A program made the translations under genes and the position numbers. From positions 270,001 to 302,000 of the forward strand of contig OY969425.1 in the NCBI GenBank assembly GCA_963699255.1: 32,000 nucleotides of DNA. Direction: 5' to 3'. Under the pieces are notes generated by a model, which ran no database searches, was not told the DNA's origin, and saw only the letters and a program-made list of their open reading frames with translations. The DNA is from an uncultured bacterium (GTDB taxonomy: Bacteria > Margulisbacteria > WOR-1 > CAVSGV01). This document shows, piece after piece, positions 10,217-26,795 of this stretch (position 1 is its first letter; each line of letters begins with the position of its first letter).

Positions 10217-11989
10217 TTACGGCGTAACGCCGGCGAAACTCTTGTAATCCTCCATCTCTTTTTCAAACATTCCTGAACGATAGAGCATTTCTATCAGATC
10301 CCCCATAGTGGCTGTCTCTTCAGGCGATCTGCCTGCCAGATATTCCAGAAGGCTGGCCTCATCCACATTTGTCGCTTTCGAAACATATCGCGCGGATTCC
10401 GCCCTTGTGACAGACCGGTCAGGCTTAAAAGTGCCGTCTTCATAATCTGTCATGATGCCGGCAGATTTTACCGCATTTATGAAGCTCGCCGCCCAGTGCA
10501 TGCGGTTTACGTCTTTGGAGACCGTTTTCTGCGTCAGGCTTAGATCAAGTTTTTTGGCTTTTGACATTATCAGTGCCATCAGCCCCCTTGAGAGCGGCTT
10601 GTTCAGTTTGTAATCCTTTCCAAGATAGCCGTAAAGTTCCGTATAGATGACCATGTATGCGAAACTCTTATTTTTTACTTCGTTTATGCTCAGGTCGACG
10701 GGGACATAGAATCTTACTATCCTCCTTGGTATCTCGGCTTCCGAACTGTCCGTATCCCTTAATTTTATTTGTATCTCATTCTTACCTATATTAAGAGGGA
10801 CAGATGCTTCAAATGCTCCGCTGCCTGATACGGCCAGTTTATTGCCGTATATCCAGACATCTGTCACATCAGGATCCACAGTGCCGCTGAAAACCTGTTC
10901 GGTGTCCAGAGTGTACAGGTTGCCGGAAGGAATGAGTGATATCTTCTGCATGACCGTCTTGATCGCGGCGACCTTTTCTGGCGCTGCGGCCGGGGCCGGG
11001 GCTTCTTTTGCAGGCGCGGCTGCCGGCGCAAAAACGGGCGCGCTGTAGAAAGTAAGGGAAACAATATTGGAAGCGATGTTCGTCTGGGCGTAATTCTGCA
11101 GGTATGCAAGATCGATCTTTACCCCTGAATAATCAAAGCCAAGACCAAAAGTAGTGTTGTTCGTCAGTTGCCCGCCGATCGCGGAGCTCGCCTCTTGATT
11201 ATAGCCGGCCCTGAGACTCAAATTCGGATGGACCTTCCATTCCGCGCCAAAGTGCATGGGCCAGGGAACATTGTCTCCGCCAAGGAACATATCCTCATCA
11301 AGCGCGAATTTTGCATTATACTCCAGCCACTGGAACGCCATCCCTATTTTCGTGATGAACGGCATGTCCTCCGTTTCAAAATCCCCGTAGATCTTTGACC
11401 CGCCGATAACGTTTTGGAGGTTCAATCCGTAGGATATCCACTTTTCCGGGGTGTATTTTAATCCAAGGTCAATGTTATAACCCGAGCCGGACCCGTTGAC
11501 GTCGCCGGTGTATCCTTTAGAGTAATATTTTAATGTCGCGCCGCCGTACATGTTCGGCTCATTTCCTGTGGATGGCCCGATCGATCCAAGCTCTTTTCCG
11601 TAGGACAGGACCAGGGCCTGGTTATAGAAATTTGTTGTGCCTGTAGTGCCTCCACCTGAAACATCAATGCCGTTTATTTTTGACGCGACATATCCTATCC
11701 CGAAAACACCCGATGTGGTAGGGATGACGCCGCAAAACATCGTATATTGATATTCATTCAGGAAATTTGAGCTCATCGTGGATATCTGCCAGCTTTTCTG
11801 GCTTCCGAGACCTGCGGGATTCATGAACATGGCGTTCACGTCATCCGCGACCGCAACAAATGCTTTGCCCATGCCCAGCGGGCGGGCCCCGATTCCGACG
11901 GCAATGGGATCGTCATAATAAACGATGCACCAGCAGTTTGCGGAGTACAGGATTAAAAAAGTAGATACCGCTACAAGGAGTTTTTTCAC
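10217..11989 (-). CDS. PorV/PorQ (FadL-like) family outer-membrane beta-barrel protein fused to a C-terminal SLH domain
   Basis: 590 aa with a signal peptide (MKKLLVAVSTFLILYSA). The N-terminal block GIGARPLGMGKAFVAVADDVNAMFMNPAGLG is the signature opening of PorV/PorQ/FadL-type barrels. Aromatic-rich alternating beta-strand sequence runs to about aa 315. An Ala/Pro linker follows (APVFAPAAAPAKEAPAPAAAPEK), then an Ig-like region of about 100 aa, then one SLH domain. Confidence 0.7.
   Translation of the reverse strand: MKKLLVAVSTFLILYSANCWCIVYYDDPIAVGIGARPLGMGKAFVAVADDVNAMFMNPAGLGSQKSWQISTMSSNFLNEYQYTMFCGVIPTTSGVFGIGYVASKINGIDVSGGGTTGTTNFYNQALVLSYGKELGSIGPSTGNEPNMYGGATLKYYSKGYTGDVNGSGSGYNIDLGLKYTPEKWISYGLNLQNVIGGSKIYGDFETEDMPFITKIGMAFQWLEYNAKFALDEDMFLGGDNVPWPMHFGAEWKVHPNLSLRAGYNQEASSAIGGQLTNNTTFGLGFDYSGVKIDLAYLQNYAQTNIASNIVSLTFYSAPVFAPAAAPAKEAPAPAAAPEKVAAIKTVMQKISLIPSGNLYTLDTEQVFSGTVDPDVTDVWIYGNKLAVSGSGAFEASVPLNIGKNEIQIKLRDTDSSEAEIPRRIVRFYVPVDLSINEVKNKSFAYMVIYTELYGYLGKDYKLNKPLSRGLMALIMSKAKKLDLSLTQKTVSKDVNRMHWAASFINAVKSAGIMTDYEDGTFKPDRSVTRAESARYVSKATNVDEASLLEYLAGRSPEETATMGDLIEMLYRSGMFEKEMEDYKSFAGVTP
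10370..10520 (-). other. S-layer homology (SLH) domain within the OM barrel protein
   Basis: KDVNRMHWAASFINAVKSAGIMTDYEDGTFKPDRSVTRAESARYVSKA matches the SLH consensus (DV...HWA...I....G...GY.DG.F.P....TRAE.A). There is a single copy, located at the C-terminus. Confidence 0.75.
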
Positions 11990-11993
11990 GGTG

Positions 11994-12863
11994 TTATTGG
12001 CGGAAGACCGCGACCTTTACTCGGCCAAGCTCTCTGGTGCTGCCGCCAGCATTTGAAACGATGCTGAGGACATAAACGCCTGTAGGCACCTGTTCATTGA
12101 AATAGGTCAGCGCATTCCAGGGGACGGCGTTATCTCCGGCAGAACCGCCGTTCTCTCCCGCGGGGATCGTTTTTTGCCAGATAAGCGCGCCTTTCTGGTT
12201 GAACAGATACAGCGATATTGTCGCCGCGGTATTGAGCTTATATTTTATCATTGTCGGACCCGTGGAAGGATTGAACGGATTTGGATCGTTGGACGGAGTA
12301 CCTATTATATCCACCTGACCCGGAGATTGAACGGTGAATCCGCCGGCCAGAACGCCGATCTTGCCGTAGCCCACGTTCGTGACCAGAACGTTCCTTGGTC
12401 CGACAGCGGCATTGTTCAGGTCAAAAGTGCACTCCATGCTCGTTGAACTTTCGATCGTGACCGTTGTCCCGTTAATGGTCGGCTGGCTCGGGCCGGTCAA
12501 GCTCGCTGTAGCGTCAGTGGAGATCAAGTAGCCGTTGATCACGACCCTGTATGACGCGTTGTTGTAACCTGCGTGCGGATCGATCTTTTTTACTACGGGA
12601 GTTTCTGCCGTGCTGAATGCGCCGGTCCCGTATACCACTCCAATGAACCTGCCTTCAAGCGTAAAACCTGGGCTCGTGGTGATCTGAGGAACGTTATCCC
12701 GCAGCTTGCCGATGAGCCTGTAACCGGATGATTCTATGGATGCGCCCCCAAGGTCCATGACTTCGGCGGATATCGCGTAGTTCGCGCTGGTGGCGGCTTG
12801 AGCGCCGCAACACCAGAAAAACATCAATAAGATCAATACAGACTTTTTTATTTTTGTCATCAA
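11994..12863 (-). CDS. Secreted protein with IPT/Ig-like middle domain and T9SS-type (FlgD-Ig/Por_Secre_tail-like) C-terminal domain
   Basis: 289 aa with a signal peptide (cleavage around AQA-AT). An N-terminal SANYAISAEVMDLGGASIESSGYRL motif is present. The C-terminus begins PNPFNPSTGPTMIKYKL...ISLYLFNQKGALIWQ...PTGVYVLSIV...KVAVFRQ, the characteristic layout of T9SS type-A sorting / FlgD-Ig-like domains. Its stop lies 4 nt from the start of the barrel gene. Confidence 0.6.
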   Translation of the reverse strand: MMTKIKKSVLILLMFFWCCGAQAATSANYAISAEVMDLGGASIESSGYRLIGKLRDNVPQITTSPGFTLEGRFIGVVYGTGAFSTAETPVVKKIDPHAGYNNASYRVVINGYLISTDATASLTGPSQPTINGTTVTIESSTSMECTFDLNNAAVGPRNVLVTNVGYGKIGVLAGGFTVQSPGQVDIIGTPSNDPNPFNPSTGPTMIKYKLNTAATISLYLFNQKGALIWQKTIPAGENGGSAGDNAVPWNALTYFNEQVPTGVYVLSIVSNAGGSTRELGRVKVAVFRQ

Positions 12864-12886: not shown

Positions 12887-14197
12887 TTATTTGTAAGCAC
12901 GAATAATTATCACTCCGTTCGCGCCGGCTCCGCCAGTTGCGGTATAGGTAGTGGTATTGGATCTTTGCGCGGAACCTCCCGCTCCGCCGCCTCCGTATAA
13001 CGAACCGGCTGTTCCTGTAGTGGCAGTATTGGTAGTAGCTATAAATACACTAGGGCTATGTGTGCTGAATAAGGAATTGCCGCCTGCGCCTGAAATACCG
13101 GAAGTAGATGACAGACGGTATCCCGCTCCGCCGGCGCCGCCCGGAATATTTATATCGCCAGTTGCTCCCGCTGTACCTCCTGCGCCGCCTGCGGCAGTTA
13201 AGGTAGTAGTTCCAGAGGCCATATTTGTACCTCCGCTGCCTCCATTTGCGGTAATAGCGGAAGCATTGAATTGAGTCGGGTTTCCTGCAGTGCCTACGGC
13301 AGTGCTGCCTCCTGCGCCGCCAGTTCCTACTGAGAAAGTATATGTAGTGCCCGGGCTGGTCGCGATACGCTTTATTGTGCATGCTCCGCCGCCTCCGCCT
13401 CCACCCACAGCTCCAGAGGGATTGGCACCAGTAGTACCGCCGGAACCGCCGCCGCCACCACCGATCAAAATAACTTCAATATCAGTTACGCCGGCGGGAA
13501 CAGTAAACGGGCTTGTGCTTGCCGTTGTTAATACTGCGATTCCGGAGAGAACCCCGAGATTTGTTAGGTTCGCTCCGCTGCCGGCAAAAGCAGTTGCGGT
13601 CACGGTTCCTATAAAATTCGCGTCGCCGCTTACGCCAAGAGTCGTGCTGAATGTACTGTATGTTCCGATAGATAATTTATTTTTAAAGGCGCAATAGGAA
13701 TCGCCAACGGAGAGGGAAGGATTGTCCGGATCCGCGGTTGCTCCGGAACCTCCGCCGATGTGAAATGAGGGGTCGCCTGTGCGCGCGCTCGCCGCCCTTG
13801 CTTCAAGTCTGATATTCCGCTGGCCTGATGTCACATCGGCGGTCTTGAAAATAAAATCGATCAGGGTGGTGGTAGGATCTGTCGATTCGTATATCGCGCC
13901 GTTTTCACCGTTCCTGTTGCGCAGGCGCAAGATGGATGAACCGTAGACGTCGCCGTCCTGACGCATGACCAATTCTTTGGAAGCGACAATAGTCCCGCCT
14001 TCCGTTGTGCCGACCCCGATATTTCCGTATACATCCAGCATCTGCACGGGATTTGTTTTTCCGATCGCCACCTGGGTGGTTACATCAACTGTGCCTATCA
14101 CGGTCAAGAACCCCTCGACCGACACATCTTTTGTTACGGCAAAAGCCGGAACAGAAACGATGCATATTATTAATATAAAAAATAGTATATTTTTCAT
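12887..14197 (-). CDS. Secreted glycine-rich repeat protein (paralogue 1), tail-fibre-like N-terminus
   Basis: 436 aa with signal peptide MKNILFFILIICIVSVPAFA. An N-terminal IGKTNPVQMLDVYGNIGVG motif is shared with the giant proteins. The FTVPAGVTDIEVILIGGGGGGSGG entry motif is followed by about 200 aa of Gly/Ala/Thr/Ser-rich sequence ending GVIIIRAYK. Confidence 0.6.
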   Translation of the reverse strand: MKNILFFILIICIVSVPAFAVTKDVSVEGFLTVIGTVDVTTQVAIGKTNPVQMLDVYGNIGVGTTEGGTIVASKELVMRQDGDVYGSSILRLRNRNGENGAIYESTDPTTTLIDFIFKTADVTSGQRNIRLEARAASARTGDPSFHIGGGSGATADPDNPSLSVGDSYCAFKNKLSIGTYSTFSTTLGVSGDANFIGTVTATAFAGSGANLTNLGVLSGIAVLTTASTSPFTVPAGVTDIEVILIGGGGGGSGGTTGANPSGAVGGGGGGGACTIKRIATSPGTTYTFSVGTGGAGGSTAVGTAGNPTQFNASAITANGGSGGTNMASGTTTLTAAGGAGGTAGATGDINIPGGAGGAGYRLSSTSGISGAGGNSLFSTHSPSVFIATTNTATTGTAGSLYGGGGAGGSAQRSNTTTYTATGGAGANGVIIIRAYK

Positions 14198-14221
14198 TCT
14201 GACAAAATTCTTACCGCGAAA

Positions 14222-15181
14222 TTAGTAATATACGATAACGAGTCCCGCAGCTCCGGCCCCGCCTGCTCCGCCATTCTCCTGGCCGCCGCCGCCACCGCCG
14301 CCGGGAGGAGTTCCTGCTCTTCCGGCAACGCCCCCTCCAGCGGCATTAGCGCCGGGGCCGCCAGCTCCGCCTGAACCGCCCATCGGGCTTCCGCCTCCTG
14401 TGCCGCCGCTGGCTCCATCAGCTGCTTGAGAATTTCCGCCTGTTCCGCCTGTGAGATTAATTGTCCCGCCTGATCCTGCGCCTCCTGCCCCGCCTGTAGT
14501 TGTGGCTCCTGTTGAACCGCCGGCACCCGTAAAAGTGGTTCCGCCGGCAAAACTGCTGTTGTTGCCGTTTGCTCCGGCGCCTCCGCCGGTTCCAACTGTT
14601 ACGGTCACACTAGCACCGCTTACACTTACAAGACCCGCGCTATAACCTCCGCCTCCGCCTCCGCCTCCGGATGTATTATTGCCTGCCGTTACTCCTCCTC
14701 CTCCTCCTCCCCAAACCTGAACGTAAACTTTACTTACTCCCGCAGGTCTTGTCCATGTTCCGCTGGATGTAAACACTTGTATGTTTTGCGGGACTCCTGT
14801 TCCAGGTACCCAGGCTCTGGTTTCTGACGCTGGGAGGGAAGACGCTTCAAAAGTCACTTTTTTAGTGTTGTCAGCGCCATTCTGGATATATGTGGAAGTA
14901 TCGGTCATGGTCTTATTTGTCAGGGTCTGTGTTTCCGCGGTCATTGCGAAGGTATCATTGGCGCCGGGATCCGATATGGTAAGCGTTCTTGCGGCAGCAG
15001 GGTTGTTCCAAAGAAGCGTGTAATTAGCCGTTGTCTGTTTGAACAGGATATTTGTGTTAAGGTCCAGCTGGCCTTCAATTGTGATATTGCCTGTTACGGC
15101 AAAAGCGCCGCATGAAAAAAATAATACAAGAAAAAAACAGGCAAAATTTCTTTTCATGAATATTCGCTCATAATAATTCAT
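14222..15181 (-). CDS. Secreted glycine-rich repeat protein (paralogue 2)
   Basis: 319 aa. The likely true start is the ATG at 15157 (MKRNFACFFLVLFFSCGAFA signal peptide). It contains the QTLTNKTMTD motif shared with the giant proteins. WTRPAGVSKVYVQVWGGGGGG then leads into a Gly-rich C-terminal half ending GLVIVYY. Confidence 0.6.
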   Translation of the reverse strand: MNYYERIFMKRNFACFFLVLFFSCGAFAVTGNITIEGQLDLNTNILFKQTTANYTLLWNNPAAARTLTISDPGANDTFAMTAETQTLTNKTMTDTSTYIQNGADNTKKVTFEASSLPASETRAWVPGTGVPQNIQVFTSSGTWTRPAGVSKVYVQVWGGGGGGVTAGNNTSGGGGGGGGYSAGLVSVSGASVTVTVGTGGGAGANGNNSSFAGGTTFTGAGGSTGATTTGGAGGAGSGGTINLTGGTGGNSQAADGASGGTGGGSPMGGSGGAGGPGANAAGGGVAGRAGTPPGGGGGGGQENGGAGGAGAAGLVIVYY

Positions 15182-18100
15182 TAATACTTATATATCAGCA
15201 CAGAAACGCTGTTGCCTGATCCTGCCGCGCTTGTTACTGCTATTCCTATCATCTTGCCTGTTTGGAGATTGGAATAACCGTTCACACTGCCGGCAGCCGT
15301 AGATGTGCATATCGCGTCGCCGATGTTTATCGCCTGATTGGCAACTGCGTTCGTTATCCTTCCCGAAACGGCTACATATGCCGTGGTTCCTTCAACGGCC
15401 TGAACGAAACCAACAACATTTGGATCTTTTGCAGTGGTAGATGTTTTTACCGTATTGGCACTTGTCGTATCAAGGACAACAACATTACCCGCCACGACAG
15501 TGCCTGAAAAAGCAAAAGGCACAACAATAAGTCCTGATCCGGAGGTTGAAGTATTTAATCTGGCCGTGTTAGCCGTAACGGTATCTATAGTGACCAGGGC
15601 GGTTGTGCTTATGTCGGAACCGGTTATCGTTCCATTAAGGATCGCATCCGATGTGACCGAGCCTGTTGCCATCTTTGCCGCCGTTATCGTGTTAGACGCA
15701 ATTGCGTCAGAAGTTACTGAACCAGTTGCCATCTTCGCAGCTGTGATGGTGTTAGCCGCGATCGCATCTGAAGTGACTGAACTTGTAGCTATCTTGGCTG
15801 CTGTGATGGTGTTAGCAGCAATAGCATCAGAAGTGATTGAACTGGTTGCCATGTTGGCGGCAGTGATGGTGTTATTACCGAGTTTAGCCCCTGTTATCGC
15901 ATTAGCAGCGATCGCGTCTGAAGTGATTGAACTGGTTGCCATATTAGCGGCAGTGATAGTATTGTTCCCGAGCTTAGCGCCTGTTATCGCGTTAGCGGCA
16001 ATAGCATCTGAAGTGATTGAACCGGTTGCCATATTAACAGCGGTGATAGTGTTGCCTGCGATCTTGGCATTGGTTACCGAACCGCTGGTCAAGTCACCTG
16101 CAACAATGCTGTTGGAGAGGTTCAATTTAGAGTAGGCGATAGCAGCGGATCCGTTAATGTCGACATTGAGTATTGTGCCATCAAGGATGGCGTCTGAAGT
16201 GATAGACCCTGTTGCCATATTGGCAGCAGTGATGGTGTTGTTACCGAGCTTAGCGCCTGTAATCGCGTTAGCCGCGATCGCATCTGAAGTGATTGAACCG
16301 GTAGCCATGTTTGCAGCGGTGATAGTGTTGTTGCCGATTTTTGTGCCTGTTACCGAGCCGCTGGTCAGATCACCGGCGACGATACTATTGGAGAGGTTCA
16401 ATTTAGAGTAGGCGATAGCAGCGGATCCGTTAATGTCGACATTGAGTATTGTGCCATCAAGGATGGCGTCTGAAGTGATAGACCCTGTTGCCATATTGGC
16501 AGCAGTGATGGTGTTGTTACCGAGCTTAGCGCCTGTAATCGCGTTAGCCGCGATCGCATCTGAAGTGATTGAACCGGTAGCCATGTTTGCAGCGGTGATA
16601 GTGTTGTTGCCGATCTTTGTGCCTGTTACCGAGCCACTTGTCAGATCACCGGCGACGATGCTGTTCGATAGGTTCAACTTCGAGTAGGCGATAGCCGCAG
16701 ATCCGTTTATATCCGCATTGAGTATCGTTCCGTCAAGGATCGCATCTGAAGTTACAGAACCTGTTGCCAGCTTTGATGCGGTTATGGCTCCGTCGCTTAC
16801 AGTTGCGGCTGTCGAAGCATTTCCAGCCAAGGTTGCATAGTTTGCTGAGACTGCAGAAGTTGCTGAGCCTGCCAAAGCTGCATAATTGGCTGAAGTGGCA
16901 GTGCCTGCCAAAGTAGCTGAGCCGGCCAAAGTAGCATAGTTAGCATTTGTAGCGAGATCGGCGTAGGCAGCAGTCGATGCATTTCCAGCCAAGGTTGCAT
17001 AGTTAGCTGAGACTGCGGACGTTGCTGAGCCAGCCAAAGTTGCATAATTAGCAGAAGTAGCAGCGCCTGCGGAGGTTGCAGTACCTGCTAGGGCTGCGTA
17101 GTTAGCAGAAGTAGCAGTGCCTGCCAAAGTAGCTGAGCCGGCCAAAGCAGCATAGTTAGCATTTGTAGCGAGATCTGCAGAAGCAGCAGTAGAAGCATTT
17201 CCTGCCAAAGTTGCATAATTGGCGGAAGTTGCAGTCCCTGCAGAAGTAGCAGAGCCAGCTAAGGTTGAGTAGTTTGCAGATGAAGCAGTGACTGCCGAGG
17301 TTGCAGTTCCGGCTAAAGTTGCATAGTTAGCAGAAGTTGCATTTCCTATTACCGTTCCACTAAGAGTCCCGCTGAAGGTCTCTGCGGTTACTATTCCTGT
17401 TACAGCGAGATTGCCTGTTGCCCTGTCAAAAGAATAGGTTTTTGTGCCGCCGTTGTTATTCAGATAAAAATCTTTATCATCTACCCTGAAGATATATTGC
17501 TGGACACCCGCAATAGTATCGAACAATCCAATGCGCATAGGTTTGATGCGTGCGTAACCATAATTATTCCCATCAAAAACGCCTTGAGTATTGGCCCCAA
17601 CTACAACAATACCTTCCGATGTCGCATTTTCGGGATCGCCGTCAGCCGTAAAAGCACCTAATTTTATCACACTGCTATTTTCATAGTTCCATATCATTGT
17701 TCTTCCATATGGGTCGATATTGCCTAATATTATTTTTGCTTTTATTCGATCCGTTTCAGCTGAGATATAGCCTGTTGTGTTGATATTGATGGCCGATGCC
17801 AGATCAACTCCTAATATAGTTCCATCAAGGATCGCATCAGAAGTTACAGAGCCGGTTGCCATTTTTGACGCGGTTATTGCTCCGTCACTTACCGTAGCAG
17901 CGGTAGAAGCATTTCCTGCCAAGGTTGCATAGTTAGCTGATGTGGCAGTGCCTGCGGAAGTTGCAGTAGCTGCCAATGAAGCATAGTTAGCAGAAACAGC
18001 GCTGGTGGCAGTACCAGCTAAAGTTGCATAATTAGCAGAGATAGCAGTTCCTGCTGAAGTTGCAGTACCGGCCAGAGTTGCGTAATTTGCGGAGGCTGCA

Positions 18101-19689
18101 GAGGTTGATGTGCCTGCTAATATCGCATAATTAGCATTTGTAGCGAGGTCAGCTGAGGCAGCAGTGGATGCATTTCCTGCCAAAGCTGCATAGTTAGCTG
18201 AAGTAGCAGTGCCTGCGGAGGTTGCAGTACCCGCTAGAGCCGCATAGTTAGCAGAAGTAGCGGTTCCTGCCGAAGTTGCAGTGCCAGATAAGATCGCATA
18301 ATTTGCATTAGTAGCAAGATCAGCCGACACTGCGGTCGATGCAGTTCCTGACAGGTTTGCGTAATTTGCGGAAGCAGCTGAAGTTGAGATCCCGGCTAAT
18401 GTTGCGAAGTTAGCTGATGTGGCAGTTCCTGCAGAAGTTGCTGTACCGGCCAGAGTTGCGTAATTTGCGGAGGCTGCAGAGGTTGATGTGCCTGCTAATA
18501 TCGCATAGTTAGCATTCGTAGCGAGGTCAGCTGAGGCAGCGGTAGAAGCATTTCCAGCCAAGGTTGCATAATTGGCAGAAGAAGCAGTGCCTGCGGAGGT
18601 TGCAGTACCCGCTAGAGCCGCATAGTTAGCAGAAGTAGCGGTTCCTGCCGAAGTAGCAGTGCCAGATAAGATCGCATAATTTGCATTAGTAGCAAGATCA
18701 GCCGACACTGCGGTCGATGCAGTTCCTGACAGGTTTGCGTAATTTGCGGAAGCAGCTGAAGTTGATATCCCGGCTAATGTTGCGAAATTAGCTGATGTGG
18801 CAGTTCCTGCAGAAGTTGCTGTACCTGCTAGAGCTGCATAATTAGCGGAAGAAGCATTGGTAGCATTTGTTGCGTTGGTAGCGTTATTTGCATTGTTAGC
18901 CCAATCAACTTTTGGAGAGCCAGAAGATCCACCACCGGAGCCAGCCCAGTTAGTGGCATTAGTCGCATTGGTGGCGTTGGTAGCTGAAGCAGCAAGTATC
19001 GCGTAATCAGCAGTAGAAGCACTGGAAGCAGTTCCTGCAGAAGTTGCTGTACCTGCCAGAGTTGCATAATTAGCAGAAGTAGCAGTTCCTGCGGAAGTTG
19101 TAGTGCCGGCCAAAATTGCATAGCTGGCATTTATAGCAAGATCGGCGGATGCAGAGGTAGAAGCATTTCCTGCCAGAGTTGCATAATTAGCAGAAGTAGC
19201 AGTTCCTGCGGAAGTTGCTGAGCCAGCCAAAGCTGCATAGTTAGCTGAAGTAGCAGTTCCTGCCGAAGTTGCAGTGCCAGATAAGATCGCATAATTTGCA
19301 TTTGTGGCAAGATCAGCCGAAGCAGCAGTGGAAGCATTTCCTGCTAGAGCTGCATAATTGGCGGATGAAGCAGTGCTTGCAGAAGTAGCTGTGCCGGCTA
19401 ATGTTGCGAAGTTAGCGCTGGTCGCTGTGATATTTGTGATCGTATTTAGTGAACCATCTATGGTCTTGTTCGTCAGCACTTGAGCATCCGATGTTCCGAC
19501 AATTCGACCAATCGTTCCATGTGAAATAACCTCAGCTGTATGAGTATTGAATGTAGAAAGATCTGTCTTTAAATCAACTGATGACGCAGTCGCGAAGTAG
19601 GAGGGGAGGCTCCCGCCTAATTTGTTCGCGTCTTCGGACGTTCCCATGACCGTTCCGTTAAATGTCCCGCTGAACGATTCGGCTGTCAC
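15181..19689 (-). CDS. Giant repeat fibre protein B, C-terminal portion (no own signal peptide; reading frame is open and homologous up to 19815)
   Basis: 1502 aa.
- The N-terminal about 90 aa align with aa about 610-700 of the 2022-aa protein ([20 protein letters not shown]...[21 protein letters not shown]).
- Next come long Ala/Ser/Thr 'SANYAxLAG' 18/21-residue repeats.
- A unique globular insert of about 150 aa follows.
- Decapeptide 'xITxxx[ILM]xx[GN]' repeats come next.
- The last about 120 aa form a C-terminal domain shared with the 2022-aa protein.
Only a GTG is available as a start, and the upstream in-frame sequence is homologous to the paralogue. Confidence 0.7.
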   Translation of the reverse strand: MTAESFSGTFNGTVMGTSEDANKLGGSLPSYFATASSVDLKTDLSTFNTHTAEVISHGTIGRIVGTSDAQVLTNKTIDGSLNTITNITATSANFATLAGTATSASTASSANYAALAGNASTAASADLATNANYAILSGTATSAGTATSANYAALAGSATSAGTATSANYATLAGNASTSASADLAINASYAILAGTTTSAGTATSANYATLAGTATSAGTASSASTADYAILAASATNATNATNATNWAGSGGGSSGSPKVDWANNANNATNATNATNASSANYAALAGTATSAGTATSANFATLAGISTSAASANYANLSGTASTAVSADLATNANYAILSGTATSAGTATSANYAALAGTATSAGTASSANYATLAGNASTAASADLATNANYAILAGTSTSAASANYATLAGTATSAGTATSANFATLAGISTSAASANYANLSGTASTAVSADLATNANYAILSGTATSAGTATSANYAALAGTATSAGTATSANYAALAGNASTAASADLATNANYAILAGTSTSAASANYATLAGTATSAGTAISANYATLAGTATSAVSANYASLAATATSAGTATSANYATLAGNASTAATVSDGAITASKMATGSVTSDAILDGTILGVDLASAININTTGYISAETDRIKAKIILGNIDPYGRTMIWNYENSSVIKLGAFTADGDPENATSEGIVVVGANTQGVFDGNNYGYARIKPMRIGLFDTIAGVQQYIFRVDDKDFYLNNNGGTKTYSFDRATGNLAVTGIVTAETFSGTLSGTVIGNATSANYATLAGTATSAVTASSANYSTLAGSATSAGTATSANYATLAGNASTAASADLATNANYAALAGSATLAGTATSANYAALAGTATSAGAATSANYATLAGSATSAVSANYATLAGNASTAAYADLATNANYATLAGSATLAGTATSANYAALAGSATSAVSANYATLAGNASTAATVSDGAITASKLATGSVTSDAILDGTILNADINGSAAIAYSKLNLSNSIVAGDLTSGSVTGTKIGNNTITAANMATGSITSDAIAANAITGAKLGNNTITAANMATGSITSDAILDGTILNVDINGSAAIAYSKLNLSNSIVAGDLTSGSVTGTKIGNNTITAANMATGSITSDAIAANAITGAKLGNNTITAANMATGSITSDAILDGTILNVDINGSAAIAYSKLNLSNSIVAGDLTSGSVTNAKIAGNTITAVNMATGSITSDAIAANAITGAKLGNNTITAANMATSSITSDAIAANAITGAKLGNNTITAANMATSSITSDAIAANTITAAKIATSSVTSDAIAANTITAAKMATGSVTSDAIASNTITAAKMATGSVTSDAILNGTITGSDISTTALVTIDTVTANTARLNTSTSGSGLIVVPFAFSGTVVAGNVVVLDTTSANTVKTSTTAKDPNVVGFVQAVEGTTAYVAVSGRITNAVANQAINIGDAICTSTAAGSVNGYSNLQTGKMIGIAVTSAAGSGNSVSVLIYKY
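16114..16665 (-). repeat. 276-bp (92-aa) in-frame tandem duplication, 2 near-identical copies plus degenerate flanking copies
   Basis: 16114-16389 and 16390-16665 differ at only a handful of positions. The antisense ORFs at 16157-16411 and 16433-16687 have near-identical translations. The repeat encodes SAAIAYSKLNLSNSIVAGDLTSGSVTGTKIGNNTITAANMATGSITSDAIAANAITGAKLGNNTITAANMATGSITSDAILDGTILNVDING. Confidence 0.9.
18060..18816 (-). repeat. 378-bp (126-aa) in-frame tandem duplication within the SANYA stalk
   Basis: Sequence starting at 18066 (taccggccagagttgcgtaatttgcggaggctgcagagg...) recurs at 18444. Sequence at 18301 recurs at 18679. The offset is exactly 378 bp, with high identity. Confidence 0.85.
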
Positions 19690-20681
19690 AACACCAGATG
19701 TGTTGATGTTGATATTGGATGCAAGGGAACCGCCCGATATTTTATTTGTTGAGGTATCAACTTTGATCCAGTCAACACCGGATATTTGTGAATTAGATAT
19801 ACCGGAATTTTTACTTCAAGTGAACCATTACCATTCAGATCAACAGTGACATTATCGTACTTATTTGTTGCGGCTTCACCGGTCGGACCAATAAGGCCTT
19901 GAATTCCTTGAGGCCCGGCTTCACCAGTTAAGCCTATAGGACCTTGGGGACCAATAGCTCCAGTCTCACCAGTTGCACCGATAGGGCCTTGAATTCCTTG
20001 AGGCCCGGCTTCACCAGTTAATCCGATAGGACCTTGGGGACCAATAGCGCCAGTTTCACCAGTTGCACCGATAGGACCTTGAATTCCTTGAGGGCCGGCT
20101 TCACCGGTTAATCCGATAGGGCCTTGTATACCTTGAGGCCCGGCTTCACCAGTTAATCCGATAGGACCTTGTGGACCAACAGCGCCAGTCTCACCGGTTA
20201 GACCGATCGGCCCTTGCATTCCTTGAATGCCTTGGATACCTTGAGGGCCAGCTTCACCGGTTGGGCCTTGTGGGCCTGCTTCGCCCGATGCCCAGATCGG
20301 ATTTTGAGATGCGCCTTGGGTCTTTAAAAAGTATCCGCTGGTTCCTGCCGTAAGACTTGCCCAATTTGTCCCATTGAAATAAAGAATATCTCCTTGAACC
20401 TGGCCGGGAATGTTAAGACCCGCAGCCATCGATGCCGTTCCTGATAAAGGGGTGTAATTTGCCGTGATATTTGAAAGAGCAGAGCCGTTTCCAATGAAGA
20501 AGTCTGCTTCAACCGTGCCTCCGTTAGCCAGTATTCCCGACGGCGTGAATAATTGAGATTCTATCGTTGCAGCTCCCAGAACTATAAGACCACCGGGGAC
20601 CTTTAATCCCAGGGCAACAGGATACGCAGCACCTCCAAACAGGAAGATCAGAATCAGTACGGTAAGTACCATTCTTTTCAT
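19686..20681 (-). CDS. Giant repeat fibre protein B, N-terminal portion (signal peptide + collagen-like domain)
   Basis: 331 aa with signal peptide MKRMVLTVLILIFLFGGAAYP. The block [35 protein letters not shown] is homologous to the 2022-aa protein. There are 46 uninterrupted Gly-X-Y triplets, then ATNKYDNVTVDLNGNGSLEVK. The last 40 codons are out-of-frame nonsense relative to the paralogue. Confidence 0.7.
   Translation of the reverse strand: MKRMVLTVLILIFLFGGAAYPVALGLKVPGGLIVLGAATIESQLFTPSGILANGGTVEADFFIGNGSALSNITANYTPLSGTASMAAGLNIPGQVQGDILYFNGTNWASLTAGTSGYFLKTQGASQNPIWASGEAGPQGPTGEAGPQGIQGIQGMQGPIGLTGETGAVGPQGPIGLTGEAGPQGIQGPIGLTGEAGPQGIQGPIGATGETGAIGPQGPIGLTGEAGPQGIQGPIGATGETGAIGPQGPIGLTGEAGPQGIQGLIGPTGEAATNKYDNVTVDLNGNGSLEVKIPVYLIHKYPVLTGSKLIPQQIKYRAVPLHPISTSTHLVL
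19872..20287 (-). repeat. Collagen-like Gly-X-Y region (46 triplets)
   Basis: Hand count of uninterrupted [18 protein letters not shown] ... GPT GEA triplets, covering aa 133-270 of the 331-aa ORF. Confidence 0.9.
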
Positions 20682-20726
20682 TTCAGCACCTTCATTTTAT
20701 TTGTATGTTGCTTGCTTATATACATT

Positions 20727-23700
20727 TTAGAATTTATGGATCCAGATCGTGACTGTCCCTCCCGAATCATTGGTCAATGCTATGCCTATGCATGCGCCAA
20801 CCGTCAAATCGCCGGGTACGGACTGTATTTTGCCGGGCGCTAAGTCTGTTTCAACAGCATCTCCGCGGTGTATCGTACCTGTCGCTTTCGCGTTGGTCAC
20901 CCTGCCGGAGTATGCGACATATACTGTCTGGCCCGCGGCGGTTGTTGTGTTCATCGCAAAGCCCATCACGCCCTGGTCCGCTTCAACCGTTGTTTCCCTT
21001 ACCTGATTATCGGCGCTAGGATCATAGGCCACAACATCCCCGGCCGCTATGGCTGAAGCCGCTGTCATTGGAAGTGCAATGGTGCCGCTGCCGGAAGTGG
21101 AACTGTCGCTTAAATATGCATTTTTGCCGCTCGGGATAACAACATCCCCGCCGTTAAAGGATTCGGCCGTAACATATCCGCTCGTGCTGATATTGATCGC
21201 GCTAGATACGTTTGCCGCCGTTGAAGCAGTCCCTGCCAATGTAGCATAATCAGCGGAAACGGCGGTAGTAGAAGTTCCCGCCAGAGTCGCATAATTTGCT
21301 GTTGCTGCATTTGTGGCCGTGACTCCGGTCAGCTTCGATCCATCACCGTAGAATCTGCCGGTTGAGGATTCGATAGAAGCTGAACCGATCTTGACATTTC
21401 CGTTGACTGACAACTCATATCCCGCTTCGGGGGTCAAAGTTCCCAAGCCGGTGCTGCCATTCATAACAAGGAACCTTCCGGTATCAGCAGCGCTACCGCC
21501 GCTCCCCAAACTGACCTTGAAATCTCCGCCCTTTGTGCCGGGTCCGCCCGAGCCGGTCCCTGTAGTAAAGAGCATGCTTCCTCCCGCCACCCCACCTCCG
21601 AGGCCTGCAGTAAAAGAAAACCCGCCGGCGTTTATGCTGCCCGAAGAGGCCGTGAAAGAGAAAGAACCGCCGCCGCCGGACCCGCCTCCGGTGGACATTG
21701 ATATTCCTCCACCAACGCCGCTGGCCGTAGCGCCGGAAACTGTAAATGTTCCTCCGGTACCTCCGGGAGAAGTATTAGCACCGCCTGTTAGAATTACGCT
21801 GCCACCCGCGCCTGATCCTATTGGCCCGCTACCGGCGGTCAATCTAATGGCTTCTCCCGATGTGCCGTCATTGCCGCCCACGACATGCAGGACACCGGTC
21901 GGATTTGAAGTCCCGATGCCGACGTTGCCGCCAAAAGTGGCCCCTGCCGAATTAGTCAAAGTTCCCGTCATGATATCGCCGGCCTTAAGGACTGCTGTCG
22001 TGGCAACTGTTGAAGTGCCGGACAAAGTTGCATAAGCTGCGGCAGCCGCAGTCGATACCGTGCCAGCTAAATCAGCATAATTAGCTGTGTTAGAATTTCC
22101 AGAGCAAGTAGAGGATGTTCCTGATAAAGCAGCGAAATCAGCAGAGGCGGCAGAAGTTGCAGTTCCTGCCAAGGTTGCATAATTAGCAGAAGCGGCAGTA
22201 GTAGAAGTTCCTGCCAGGGTCGAATAATTTGCCGTTGCTGCATTTGTTGCCGTTATGCCGGTCAGCGCCGATCCATCGCCGTAATATTTGCCGGTTGAGG
22301 ATTCAATAGAAGCTGAACCGATCTTGACATTTCCGATGACAGAGAGCCTGATTCCGGCTTCCGGGGTCAATGTTCCTATCCCGACGTTGCCGCCCATAAA
22401 AGTAAATTTAGCATTATTTCCACCTTCGGAGAGATTCGTAAAGAACATAGATCCGGGTGTTGGAGAATTGGACAGGATGAAATTAAGATCGCCGGCATTG
22501 CCAGCACTGCCGCCTACACCCGTCGTTAATGTTATATTACCCCCTTTTTCATTTTCGCCCGCGGAGGTAGTTCCATTTTGGCCTGTTATGGTTATAGCCG
22601 CCCCCGGATTGCCGCTTGGGGCGCTTCCGCCATTTACGCTTAAAATTCCTCTAACATCCAGCTTCGCTCCCGGACTCGTGGTTCCAATGCCGACGTTGCC
22701 GCCTGAAACAATAAGTTGATTAGTACCGACTGTTAATCCGCTTGCGGGCAAGGTCAGAGTTCCGGTCATGGTGTCGCCGGCTTTTAGCACATTGTCTGAG
22801 GCCGCGCCCGAACAGGCGGACGAAGTTCCACTCAAAGTAGCAAAATCAGCAGAAGAGGCGGTAGTAGCAGTTCCTGCCAAAGACGCGTAATTTGCAGCAG
22901 CCGCAGCCGATACCGTTCCAGCTAAATCAGCATAATTAGCTGTGTTAGAATTTCCAGAGCAAGTAGAGGATGTTCCTGATAAAGCAGCGAAATCAGCAGA
23001 GGCGGCAGAAGTTGCAGTTCCTGCCAAGGTTGCATAATTAGCAGAAGCGGCAGTAGTAGAAGTTCCTGCCAGGGTCGAATAATTTGCCGTTGCTGCATTT
23101 GTTGCCGTTATGCCGGTCAGCGCCGATCCATCGCCGTAATATTTGCCGGTTGAGGATTCAATAGAAGCTGAACCGATATTGACATTTCCGTTTACTGACA
23201 ATTCGTATCCGGCTTCCGGAGTCATCGTTCCCAATCCGATGCTGCCGTTCATAACGCTGAATCTTCCGTTATCGGCGGCACTGCCACCGCTACCCAAATT
23301 GACCCTAAAATCCCCGCCCCTTGTGCCGGGCCCACCCGAGCCAATTCCTGTAGTAAATGTCATTCCCCCTCCCGTACCTCCGCCGCCGAGGCCGGCAGTA
23401 AAGGAAAATCCGCCGCCGGCACCGGCCCCTGAAGCAGCCGTGAAAGAGAAAGAACCGTTACCGCCGGATCCTGCTGCGGAGGTCATTGATATACCCCCGC
23501 CTCCGCCGCCGATTGAACCGCCGGAAACTGTTATCGCTGCTCCGCCAGCACCGGGAGAAAGAGAACCACCACCATTTATCAGGACACTACCACCCGCGCC
23601 TCCTCCTGCTGGTCCAGCACCCGCAATCAATCGAATGGATTCTCCCGATACGCCGTTGTTGTCGCCCACAACATGCAGTTTTCCTGTCGGACTCGTCGTC

Positions 23701-26700
23701 CCGATGCCGACATCGCCTCCTATGACAACAAGTTGACTGGTGCCGACCAATAAACCGCTGGCGGGCAGAGTCAAAGTTCCGGTCATGGTATCGCCGGCCT
23801 TAAGGACTGCTGTCGTGGCAACCGTTGAAGTGCCGGACAAAATTGCGTAATCTGCAAAAGCTGCAGTCGATGCCGTTCCAGCTAAATCAGCATAATTAGC
23901 TGTGTTAGAATTTCCAGAGCAAGTAGAGGATGTTCCTGATAAGATCGCGTAAGAAGCTGAGCCTGAACAGGATGACGCAGTTCCACTCAAAGTCGCATAA
24001 CCCGCATTAGTTGCTGTTCCACTTAAAGTTGCGTATACTGCGGTTGAAGATGTGCCGGATAATACGGCATAATTTGCCGTCGTTGCCGTGACCCCGGTCA
24101 GCGCAGATCCGTCGCCGTAATATTTGCCTCCGGCTTCCAGAGTGATGCTTCCAGCCACCTGAAGTTTTTGTAAAGGATTCGTTGTCCCGATGCCGACATT
24201 GCCGACCGCATTAGAGCCATTATGCGCTAAAATAACATTACCCGAAGTCCCCCCCGTAATCCCAGATACATAAACAGAACCACCATTTGGCCCGGCACCC
24301 CCAAAAAGATACAGGTTGCCTGGAGTGCCGCTGCTAGATCCCGCCTGTACAGTAAGATTTCTACCAGTGGTAGCTTCACCTTGTATGGATATGGTTCTGG
24401 CGGCTCCCGAAGATAGCAGGATATTACCGTTAACCTCAAGGCTTGCTCCCGGACTCGTTGTCCCGATGCCGACCTTGCCGCCTGAAACAACCAGTTGACT
24501 GGTGCCGACTGTTAAACCGTTTGCGGGCAAAGTCAGCGTTCCTGTCATTGTATCGCCGGCCTTAAGGACTGCTGTGGTGGCAACTGTTGAAGTGCCGGAC
24601 AAGGTTGCATAATTTGCATTGGCCGCGGTGACATTTGTAATTGTATTGAGCGAGCCGTCTATTGTCTTATTGGTCAGCACTTGAGCATCCGATGTCCCGA
24701 CTATCTGGCCGGTCGTTCCGTGCGCTATCACTTCACCTGTATGGGTATTGAAGGTGGCAAGGTCAGCCTTAGATTCAACTGATGCCGCTGTTGCAAAGTA
24801 GGAGGGGAGGTTACCGCCTAACCTGTTCGTGTCCTCGGAAGTACCCGTGAATGTCCCGCTGAACGCTGTCGCGGTTACAAGTCCTGTTGTGTTGATATTT
24901 ATATTCGTTGCAAGAGCGCTGTCCGCTATCTTATTCGTGGCCGTGTCAATTTTGCTCCAGTCAACCCCCGATATTTGCGAATTGGATATACCCAAAGCTT
25001 TTACCTCAAGTGACTGATTGCCATTCAGATCAACAGTGATATTATCGTACTTATTTGTTGCGGCTTCACCGGTTAATCCGATAGGTCCTTGAGGACCGAC
25101 AGCACCAGCTTCACCAGTCAAACCGATAGGACCTTGAGGACCGATAGCTCCAGTTTCACCAGTCAAACCGATAGGACCTTGAGGACCGATAGCTCCAGTT
25201 TCACCAGTAGGACCAACAGCGCCAGTCTCACCTGTTAAACCAATAGGACCTTGAATGCCTTGAATACCTTGTGGTCCGGCTTCACCAGTTAAGCCTATAG
25301 GACCTTGCGAACCGACAGCGCCAGTTTCGCCAGTTGCACCAGTTAGACCTTGAATTCCCTGAATACCTTGTATACCTTGAGGACCTGCTTCACCAGTTAA
25401 ACCTATAGGACCTTGCGGACCGACAGCGCCAGTTTCGCCAGTTGCACCAGTTAGACCTTGAATTCCCTGAATACCTTGTATACCTTGAGGACCTGCTTCA
25501 CCAGTTAAACCTATAGGACCTTGCGGACCGACAGCGCCAGTTTCGCCAGTTGCACCAGTTAGACCTTGAATTCCCTGAATACCTTGTATACCTTGAGGAC
25601 CTGCTTCACCAGTTAAGCCTACAGGACCTTGAGGACCGATAGCTCCGGTTTCTCCTGTTGCACCAGTCAGACCAATAGGACCTTGAATTCCTTGAATACC
25701 TTGAAGGCCTTGAATGCCTTGTAAACCTTGAGGCCCAGCTTCGCCAGTCAGACCGATCGGACCTTGAATTCCCTGTAAACCTTGAGGTCCTGCTTCGCCA
25801 GTTGGACCTTGCGGGCCTGCTTCGCCCGATGCCGGCGCCCAGATCGGATTTTGAGATGCGCCCTGGGTCTTGAGGAAAAGTCCATTAGTTCCTGCTGTAA
25901 GCCTTGTCCATCTTGATCCATTGTAATACAGAACATCACCTTGCGATGCGGCATCTGTTGTTACAACAGTTGAAGATAATCTTGTGTTGCTGATCGTCCC
26001 TGATGTGATATTCGTCGCGCTCAGGTTTGTGAGAGAGTTGCTTCCTCCGTCCAAAGTTTTGTTGGTCAATGTTTGCGCGTCCGTTGTAGTTACGACCACG
26101 TTCGTATCGATCGTTAAAGTTCCTGTCGCTGTTATCGGGCCTCCAAGCAATCCTACACTTGTGTTGACCTGGGTGACAGTGCCTCCGCCCCCTCCGCCTC
26201 CTGTTGCAGATATTTCGATCGTTTGACCGCTTTGAGAGAGAGAGACATTCGTTCCGCCTTTAAGGATTACAGTTCCAGTTAAAACAGTCGCGCCGGATGA
26301 GGATATTCCTGTAACAGAGACCGGAAATATTGAAGAGGCGAGTTTTCCAGTGCCGTCGGTAAACGGAATTATGTCGGCTCCCGACGCTTCTATCGATTTT
26401 CCAGCGACTGTTGTTGAATCGTCCGCCTGAAGCGCCCTGTACGCGTGCGCCGCGCTCGCTATCTGGACCCTTGGCGTCATTTCGCCGTCCGATCCGATCT
26501 CAACACCCAACCATCTGTTCGAGCCGTTAAAAGCATTGGACTGGAAAAAAATTGCCGCGCTGAATATGCCGTTGCTGTCCGGAGTAAGAGCTTCCGTGGA
26601 TGTGCCGTTCGTGACTGGAACGCCGCCGCTTGCCTGGCTGTATAACCTGAATGTGAAGCTTTGGGAAGTTGTTACGGGATTGCCGCTTGAATCCGTCAGC

Positions 26701-26795
26701 CGTCCCTCATAACCAATTATTTGCGGTATTGCCGCATAACACACCCCTGCGAAGAGTGATAATATGAACAGTAAAAAGATAAATTTCTTGAACAT
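20727..26795 (-). CDS. Giant secreted fibre protein A: N-terminal domain, collagen-like stalk, four tail-fibre-like units with glycine-rich inserts, conserved C-terminal domain
   Basis: 2022 aa with signal peptide [21 protein letters not shown] and a GGGAGGG Shine-Dalgarno sequence.
- 85 uninterrupted Gly-X-Y triplets span aa 324-578.
- 'LKAGD(T/I)MTGTLT ... (V/I)GIGT(T/S)(S/N)P' occurs four times.
- '(Y/F)YGDGS(A/K)LTG(V/I)TAT' occurs four times.
- SANYA-type stalk repeats and Gly-rich blocks are present (e.g. [29 protein letters not shown]).
- The C-terminal about 125 aa are homologous to the end of the 1502-aa ORF. Confidence 0.8.
22063..22322 (-). repeat. 260-bp perfect intragenic repeat, copy 1
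   Basis: Base-for-base identical to 22918-23177 (offset 855 bp) on manual alignment. It encodes the stalk segment ...[82 protein letters not shown]. Confidence 0.9.
22918..23177 (-). repeat. 260-bp perfect intragenic repeat, copy 2 (a third 65-bp copy of its core lies at 23878-23942)
   Basis: Identical to 22063-22322. The first 65 bp (ccagctaaatcagcataattagctgtgttagaatttccagagcaagtagaggatgttcctgataa) also recur at 23878-23942. Confidence 0.9.
25062..25828 (-). repeat. Collagen-like Gly-X-Y region (85 triplets) containing a 108-bp tandem repeat
   Basis: Hand count gives 85 uninterrupted triplets. 108-bp (12-triplet) units start at 25321, 25429 and 25537 and are nearly identical. They encode [36 protein letters not shown] three times. 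Confidence 0.9.

Follow-up and report, generated by a model that had tools for sequence, protein, structure and literature searches.

A small secreted protein with a type-A-like C-terminal tail, paired with a PorV-family barrel carrying a predicted wall anchor, in Margulisbacteria

Type IX secretion has been described for Bacteroidota, as has the way in which it pairs C-terminal tails with PorV-type barrels. In the attachment complex of these bacteria's type IX secretion system (T9SS), PorU with PorV and PorZ with PorQ each join a protein that keeps its type-A-like tail to a barrel of the PorV/PorQ family. By analogy, we propose such a pairing for two adjacent genes of Margulisbacteria, a sister phylum of cyanobacteria. 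They lie in a stretch of 32,000 nucleotides (the window; G000:C1:270001-302000, that is, positions 270,001 to 302,000 of contig OY969425.1), which is part of a 1.77 Mb genome assembled as a single contig and 95% complete. Both genes are on the reverse strand, as are the domains and upstream genes located below. An open reading frame (ORF) of 289 aa (11994..12863, with an alternative ATG start at 12860) encodes a small protein with a signal peptide and a tail-like C-terminal domain (CTD), and is followed by a 590-aa ORF (10217..11989) that encodes a PorV-family barrel with a predicted wall anchor, as judged from its profile score, its homologues, an AlphaFold2 model and a fold search. In the window sequence, the stop codon TAA of the first gene is separated by four nucleotides (CACC) from the GTG start codon of the second. 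This junction, the ORF and the signal peptide bear out a preliminary description of the window, in which a small secreted CTD protein was placed directly before a PorV-like barrel with a 4-bp gap. The database copy of the small protein is 288 aa long and starts one codon later than the ORF.

In P. gingivalis and F. johnsoniae, porU adjoins porV, in the same gene order as the window pair. The small protein resembles PorU in that its tail matches the CTD of the PorU model better than the generic tail model; PorU (6za2) also comes second when the fold of the whole protein is searched, in a result that is dominated by generic tandem-Ig matches and does not discriminate. In contrast to PorU and PorZ, it has neither a peptidase (sortase) domain nor PorZ-like propellers. 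The window barrel differs from PorV and PorQ as well, since it stays below both equivalog cut-offs and is fused to an Ig-like domain and an SLH region. Moreover, the Bacteroidota attachment complex has two such barrels, whereas this genome encodes about 13, and SprA was not found here.

A linkage between cargo and barrel is also known for type B tails: genes of type B CTD cargo are linked to private PorP/SprF-like barrels, which recognise the tails and anchor them on the surface, and the PorE-PorP-PG1035 complex of P. gingivalis is tied to peptidoglycan through PorE (PMC9143113; PMC12618676). This linkage of a cargo gene to a private barrel gene is all that the window pair shares with them, given that its tail is type-A-like and that its barrel has no match to the PorP/SprF models of NCBIfam at E<=1. 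Compared with PorE-PorP, the predicted wall-binding part is fused to the barrel (SLH, SPOR or LysM) instead of residing in a separate OmpA-like protein, and the host is not a member of Bacteroidota. The PorV subunit of the SprA translocon, a mobile carrier for all type A substrates, is the best structural match of the window barrel, and the tail of the small protein shares the sandwich and the Lys of such substrates (6h3i; PMC10994853). In contrast, the window barrel appears to be wall-tethered and private, and no SprA was found.

Outer-membrane barrels anchored by SLH domains are known from the OmpM/Slp-type proteins of Terrabacteria diderms; OmpM carries its SLH domain at the N-terminus, ahead of a porin barrel. 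The 590-aa protein likewise combines an outer-membrane barrel with SLH as a link to the wall, and a gene for a CsaB-type pyruvyl transferase is present in the genome. It differs from OmpM in its PorV/FadL-type barrel, in the C-terminal position of SLH behind an Ig spacer, and in the tail-bearing partner gene attached to it. Some of these barrels are labelled "PorV/PorQ family protein" at NCBI, and searches of the full-text literature gave no paper on Margulisbacteria together with type IX secretion, nor one on PorV together with SLH. In Margulisbacteria, the same tail and barrel parts come as private, genetically welded pairs, and several of the barrels are fused to a predicted wall anchor; the pore and the sortase known from the T9SS are apparently missing. 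Should the tail indeed dock on the barrel, the pair would offer a simple testable model of tail-barrel recognition and of its evolution apart from the translocon, a new kind of connection by which deep-branching diderm bacteria join outer membrane and wall, and a two-gene module for surface display.

The small protein, its tail and the neighbouring barrel

The family of the small protein comprises 44 clusters with 47-100% identity, nearly all of 275-300 aa; 31 members, all homologues, were used for the family alignment and the profile tests. The window protein begins with a Sec signal peptide (aa 1-23; 12795..12863) for which cleavage is predicted between AQA and A. In the alignment, the signal peptides consist of a variable hydrophobic leader with small residues at its end, and a conserved block follows directly. 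This block is a conserved N-terminal module (N-module; aa 24-83; 12615..12794) with three loose S-x-N/S-Y-x-L units that begin at the predicted mature N-terminus. Next come an IPT/TIG Ig-like domain (aa 87-181; 12321..12605), recognised by PF01833 in 14 of the 31 members and modelled as a beta-sandwich with a predicted local distance difference test score (pLDDT) of about 90, and a T9SS type-A-like/FlgD-Ig-like CTD (aa 187-289; 11997..12305). By using the family alignment as input, AlphaFold2 returned TIG and tail as confident beta-sandwiches (pLDDT about 85-92), with the N-module below 50. Pairwise identity averages 62% in the N-module, 53% in TIG and 63% in the tail; both ends of the protein are thus constrained, above the level of the TIG domain.

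The last ~100 aa show a PNPFNP start, an I.LY.FN..G strand and GVY near the end, which is the layout quoted for a T9SS tail in the preliminary description. At the family level, the tails match TIGR04183 at E<=0.01 in 30 of the 31 members (best 3.2e-7), the C-terminal domain of the PorU model in 29 (best 3.2e-11), FlgD_ig in 22 and, weakly, CHU_C in eight, while neither PF18962 nor TIGR04131, the model of the type B tail, matched the small protein. Type A CTDs form a seven-stranded beta-sandwich and carry a near-invariant Lys close to the C-terminus (PMC10994853). In our AlphaFold2 model, the tail has 6-7 strands (185-192, 203-209, 215-220, 226-232, 242-248, 261-269 and 276-285; pLDDT about 85-90), and a Lys seven residues from the end (K283 in the ORF, K282 in alignment numbering) is kept in at least 90% of the members, so that the predicted structure has both the sandwich and the near-terminal Lys of type A CTDs. 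The tail also occupies the extreme C-terminus (aa 187-289 of 289) of a protein with a Sec signal peptide. Together, these data support the assignment of the tail to the T9SS type-A/FlgD-Ig-like domains at the level of the family, with a window copy that is not itself a curated-threshold member. The assignment made in the preliminary description therefore stands for the family, and for the window copy it falls short of the cut-offs of the T9SS CTD models.

A hidden Markov model (HMM) of the family tails found 18 ORFs of the genome with the domain at their C-terminal end, including the window ORF and its paralogue, and some of these proteins exceed the TIGR04183 cut-off with 25-49 bits. As for the count of CTD-bearing proteins suggested in the preliminary description, the genome has about 19. 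When the profile of the small-protein family was compared with the PDB, no significant match was obtained, and the scan of our genome collection with the small protein gave one weak match only, to the tail, in a metagenome-assembled genome of Bacteroidota whose tail is also sub-threshold.

The N-module occurs twice in the genome, in the window ORF and in the paralogue at C1:819177-820052. Among 1.84 billion representative proteins searched with phmmer, 13 matched it and four of these matches are genuine, that is, proteins of 279-297 aa with the module at the N-terminus and the same layout as the small-protein family. The other matches, considered as possible occurrences outside this family of ~290-aa proteins, were sushi, cadherin or low-complexity/junk repeats and were rejected. 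The small protein hence carries a module of 60 residues that was found nowhere else in this set. Its conservation at 62% implies a conserved partner, which could be the barrel itself, another envelope component or, where present, the fibres. In relatives from several families of the same class (L026, L030-L032, L034-L036, L038, L044-L047), the small protein has ~380 aa with two tandem TIG domains between N-module and tail. The stalk between the two conserved ends thus varies in length.

The 590-aa protein matches the PorV/PorQ family model NF033709 over aa 31-312 with 98.6 bits (cut-off 90; 99.9 bits in the search of the whole genome). Against the equivalog cut-offs it reaches 33.5 of 250 bits for PorV (NF033710), 35.4 of 220 for PorQ (NF033711) and 55.1 of 325 for PorV2, and none of nine other barrels of the genome reaches the PorV, PorQ or PorV2 equivalog cut-offs either. 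The barrel domain (aa 31-312; 11054..11899), delimited by profile, alignment and an AlphaFold2 model built from 24 sequences (pLDDT 79), starts with a helical hatch that bears an invariant G-A-R-P-L-G-M-G motif, followed by about 14 predicted strands up to residue 315. With Foldseek, PorV of the SprA-PorV complex (6h3i_F) was the first PDB match of the model (E 4.5e-9, target TM score 0.64, 19% identity), with FadL/TodX behind it at TM scores of 0.42-0.52. The preliminary description had made its reading depend on two points, a C-terminus recognised by CTD profiles and a barrel related to PorV; profile score and fold ranking confirm the second, and the family tails agree with the first.

Behind the barrel, an Ala/Pro-rich linker predicted to be disordered (aa 321-342; 10964..11029; pLDDT about 34) leads to an Ig-like, Glucodextran_B-like domain (aa 350-426; 10712..10942), which scores 30.1 bits with PF09136 (cut-off 27) and is modelled as a beta-sandwich. 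The C-terminal part is an SLH region for predicted cell-wall binding (aa 435-586; 10232..10687), with a PF00395 score of 46.8 bits. Pfam calls one repeat in it (492-531), while the model has a three-repeat-like helical fold whose Foldseek matches are the SLH trimers 3pyw, 7sv4 and 6cwl (TM scores 0.6-0.73), which bind pyruvylated wall polymer. In some homologues of the barrel, SPOR (P0081, P0085) or LysM (P0082, P0088) stands in the position of SLH. Different predicted wall anchors are thus swapped onto the same PorV-like barrel, as expected if the C-terminal end of the protein serves wall binding. In FadL-type barrels, the strand number is even and both ends are periplasmic; with an even number of strands, the C-terminal extension of the window barrel would face the periplasm and the wall. 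Six of the ten SLH-bearing ORFs of the genome are PorV-like barrels. The remaining ~4 (493, 564, 831 and 421 aa) include ORFs at G000:C1:1713308-1715129 and 166888-167016.

Pairing of tail and barrel genes

To 10 of the 13 PorV-family ORFs of the genome, a tail-ending ORF is directly adjacent upstream on the same strand, with gaps of -4 to 484 nt. By a rough binomial estimate, the probability of this arrangement by chance is 1e-17, or 1e-10 when recent duplicates are collapsed (nine barrel classes, six of them paired), so that tail and barrel genes adjoin each other far more often than chance would allow. Six classes are represented among the ten pairs, and between these classes both tails and barrels are only 20-39% identical. 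With about 13 barrels and about 19 tail proteins in six divergent classes, the barrels look like private sockets and not like one shared carrier. The Ig-SLH extension is present in six of the 13 barrels and in three of the ten paired ones; given that so few paired barrels have it, the partner shared by the tails would be the barrel proper. Recent duplicates in this genome have copied the tail gene and the barrel gene together. In a Mantel test, tail and barrel distances within the genome were correlated (r 0.94, p 1e-4; Spearman 0.41), a signal that is driven by the recent cassette duplicates and thus reflects co-duplication, not co-adaptation.

The family of the small protein follows the same rule throughout. 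A barrel lies directly downstream in all five metagenome contexts and in each of 30 loci that come from 29 genomes of the phylum, and the identities of small protein and barrel fall in step across loci (82/79, 69/60, 65/61, 59/49 and 49/40%, respectively). In a second set, the best PorV-family locus of each of 29 other high-quality Margulisbacteria genomes, a tail-ending frame stands just upstream in 25; the genomes of the same class have 5-19 PorV-family genes each. These counts support, at the level of gene order and profiles, a phylum-wide rule of a tail gene followed by a PorV-like barrel, and they extend the CTD-barrel pair suggested in the preliminary description to a conserved one.

The small-protein family is the most conserved such partner and is present across a whole class of Margulisbacteria. 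Its widespread locus is next to a 101-aa gene, YggS, SepF, ProC and YggT, where the paralogue of this genome sits, and the window copy, beside rho, is a duplicate common to close relatives. Small tail proteins of a second class (299-302 aa) stand before short barrels of 347 aa that are identical at two loci (G000:C1:202045-204757 and 1259626-1261736), and at one of these a further tail protein of 164 aa follows the barrel.

A proposed docking mechanism and its alternatives

From the domains, the folds, and the gene syntax with its conservation, we consider it somewhat probable that the 289-aa protein is a dedicated partner that keeps its tail and docks on a private, wall-stapled barrel. First, both proteins would be exported by Sec, in line with the signal peptides seen directly in their sequences. 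Second, the 590-aa protein, a PorV-type and FadL-like barrel by both profile and fold, would insert in the outer membrane. Third, the Ala/Pro linker and the Ig spacer would reach the wall, where SLH may bind, probably via a pyruvylated wall polymer. Fourth, the tail would dock non-covalently on the barrel, on its extracellular loops by analogy with PorV, and would probably be kept and not cut off, because no PorU-type sortase was found. The result would be a surface-exposed, wall-stapled post in the outer membrane, carrying one TIG domain and the highly conserved N-module. The latter probably binds a further conserved component, which, more speculatively, could be a surface fibre at those loci that encode fibres upstream.

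For the core components of the T9SS, the searches of the genome gave a mixed picture. With the SprA/Sov model (TIGR04189, cut-off 200), only local matches of 31-68 bits were obtained, whereas a Bacteroidota control reached 873 bits; the local matches are two ~1,130-aa barrels beside giant cargo cassettes and an 845-aa ORF. The best match to the PorU sortase (NF033707, cut-off 420) was 45.6 bits and covered model positions about 850-1095 only, that is, the C-terminal domains. No match was found to GldL, GldM or GldN, and GldK gave 26.6 bits, in searches that also failed in the SprA-positive Bacteroidota control. More precisely, GldL was silent in the control genome, its only control, GldM also in 12 relatives and GldN in three, and GldK stayed below the cut-off. 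As the controls were silent, the negatives for PorK/L/M/N carry little weight and do not establish the absence of the motor. A setting outside the classical T9SS, as put forward in the preliminary description, is hence supported in part: neither SprA, with a working control, nor PorU was found, and the PorK/L/M/N searches carry little weight either way.

The two ~1,130-aa putative barrels (G000:C1:498231-501629 and 1088250-1091657) lie downstream of a giant tail cargo, a PorV-like barrel and a propeller gene, and full-length homologues exist in many genomes of the class. Another family, of ~1,350-1,800 aa, is found in nearly every genome of the phylum and has a ~100-residue domain that resembles positions ~560-690 of the SprA model with 40-68 bits. 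In this genome, the ~1,350-aa family is split into overlapping ORFs of 845 and 643 aa (G000:C1:1409949-1414377), and in a relative (L054:1565-5638) it adjoins fabF and fabK. We considered both families as a translocon and rejected them: the likeness to SprA is local, over ~100 residues, no sequence relatives are present in the PDB, the ~1,350-aa family has no informative relatives, and some genomes have the pair but lack the ~1,130-aa family.

Several observations weigh against docking of a retained tail on a private barrel. First, the window tail alone scores 18.8 bits with FlgD_ig (cut-off 27) and 17.8 bits with TIGR04183 (cut-off 23). Second, giant proteins encoded in this genome contain FlgD-Ig-like domains as internal repeats, and such domains are also present in organisms that lack type IX secretion, so that the fold alone is no proof of a role in sorting or docking. 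Third, co-divergence and co-duplication are expected of any co-inherited neighbours. Fourth, our searches of the genome identified no route for the small protein across the outer membrane: the ~1,130-aa barrels resemble SprA only locally (31-38 bits), and one family of eight genomes that keeps the small-protein/barrel pair has none of them. Fifth, if the small protein were periplasmic, docking on extracellular loops would be impossible.

Among the alternatives, the small protein could be an ordinary type-IX-like cargo, that is, a secreted or surface adhesin with a tail that acts as a transient export signal and with the barrel as its shuttle, the tail then being removed or the protein released. 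Homology of the tail to type A CTDs fits this possibility, as does the known role of the PorV family as a shuttle (PMC10994853), and the genome has about eight tail proteins without an adjacent barrel that must use some shared route. We nevertheless judge it improbable. A barrel tethered by SLH cannot diffuse as a shuttle, and neither a PorU-like sortase domain nor SprA was found. In addition, the tail ranks with the best-conserved parts of the protein, unlike a generic signal, and barrels and cargoes are near one-to-one and strictly adjacent.

The identical tail-barrel syntax is seen with short barrels that have no periplasmic extension, and with repeat proteins of 1,000-4,700 aa that look like surface adhesins; in solved complexes, moreover, the CTD sits on extracellular loops of PorV (PMC10994853). 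These observations speak against a periplasmic partner, a second explanation that we regard as unlikely. It holds that the small protein never crosses the outer membrane and binds the periplasmic face of the barrel, the Ig spacer, SLH or the wall, and so sets or regulates the tether. Such a role would agree with the lack of an identified translocon and with the large periplasmic extension predicted for the barrel. PorV-SLH fusions are most of the SLH proteins of this genome and look like major tethers, and a single complex of P. gingivalis unites the periplasmic PorE with PorP and a CTD protein (PMC9143113).

The barrel might instead be an export or anchor pore for the fibre-like proteins encoded upstream, with the small protein as tip, base or adaptor and its N-module inserting in a donor-strand-like manner. 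Indeed, the pair closes an operon of Sec-exported fibre-like proteins in the window and in about 9-10 of the 29 related loci that have an upstream frame, the N-module combines conservation with predicted disorder when alone, and insertion of the N-terminus of an anchoring protein into a pilin has been proposed for Pam pili of the candidate phyla radiation (CPR) (PMC13278184). Still, upstream genes are unrelated in about two thirds of the 29 loci, the fibre genes are mosaic with no constant terminal module across loci, and the 62% conservation of the N-module calls for a partner that is itself conserved. For the export of folded fibres, a FadL-type barrel with its N-terminal hatch is also narrow, and matches to the tip protein PamT are weak and limited to two of the 31 members. 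Assembly of fibres or pili by the pair thus seems quite doubtful. The same variation counts against the adaptor between fibres and barrel of the preliminary description, at least as it was stated there: about two thirds of these 29 loci have an upstream neighbour that is not fibre-like, and next to the constant pair the mosaic fibre genes vary. The conserved N-module may still have an adaptor role.

Finally, it is very improbable that the operon brings together an Ig-fold protein and a FadL-like channel for hydrophobic substrates without any functional coupling, since the syntax recurs in six divergent classes of one genome and in 25 of 29 loci of the phylum, with a chance probability of 1e-10 or less, even if the barrel also resembles FadL/TodX and the window tail is sub-threshold.

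Beyond the docking of the tail on its private barrel in the window, a wider proposal can be drawn, which we offer tentatively and hold to be rather unlikely as a whole. Margulisbacteria might possess a cassette system in which a PorV-like socket of its own is assigned to nearly each protein that has a type-A-like tail, with several sockets welded to the wall (SLH/SPOR/LysM), without SprA, PorU and perhaps PorKLMN. Tail-PorV recognition would then be an older or independent module, later coupled by Bacteroidota to a powered translocon, and the 289-aa family could be a universal "base plate" whose orphan N-module recruits other surface structures.

Upstream genes of the operon

The operon is transcribed from the giant fibre-like ORFs through two Gly_rich_2 genes to the 289-aa and 590-aa ORFs. 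Its upstream part (12887..26795) contains the giant fibre-like ORFs at 20727-26795, 19686-20681 and 15181-19689 and the genes for the two Gly_rich_2 proteins at 14222-15181 and 12887-14197, with a promoter-like site ahead of it (26916-26888). Past the 590-aa ORF lie hairpins and a promoter-like site for rho. The fibre-like and Gly_rich_2 genes are accessory to the pair and not its constant partners.

Two further links between the small protein and fibres or pili were considered and rejected. The mature N-terminus of the small protein (ATSANYA) resembles SANYA repeats of fibre B; such repeats are found only in the window fibre and not at other loci with the same N-terminus, so that the likeness, confined to the window operon, was treated as coincidence and lends no help to a fibre adaptor. 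As for PamT, this pilus tip protein of CPR bacteria consists of a truncated Ig domain (PMC13278184), and its weak matches to two of the 31 members most likely reflect generic Ig likeness and would be uninformative on the N-module.

The fibre and Gly-rich genes (window 12887-20681) are mosaic in comparison with three other loci (L010, L013 and L017). In the 436-aa upstream protein, the first 187 aa are 69% like a 405-aa protein of another locus, and the last 250 aa are 75% like those at the end of an 872-aa protein that a close relative encodes and that also joins parts of the 331-aa and 1502-aa ORFs of the window. These two ORFs overlap by 4 nt (19686-19689) and together resemble single genes in relatives; the overlap may reflect either a frameshift or a true split. 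Four window ORFs, those that end at 12887, 14222, 15181 and 20727, close with a C-terminal hydrophobic strand and an aromatic or basic residue (…IWIHKF, …LIYKY, …LVIVYY and …IIIRAYK, respectively). Such endings are reminiscent of the C-terminal signals of outer-membrane proteins, and similar ones are present upstream of the pair in four relatives.

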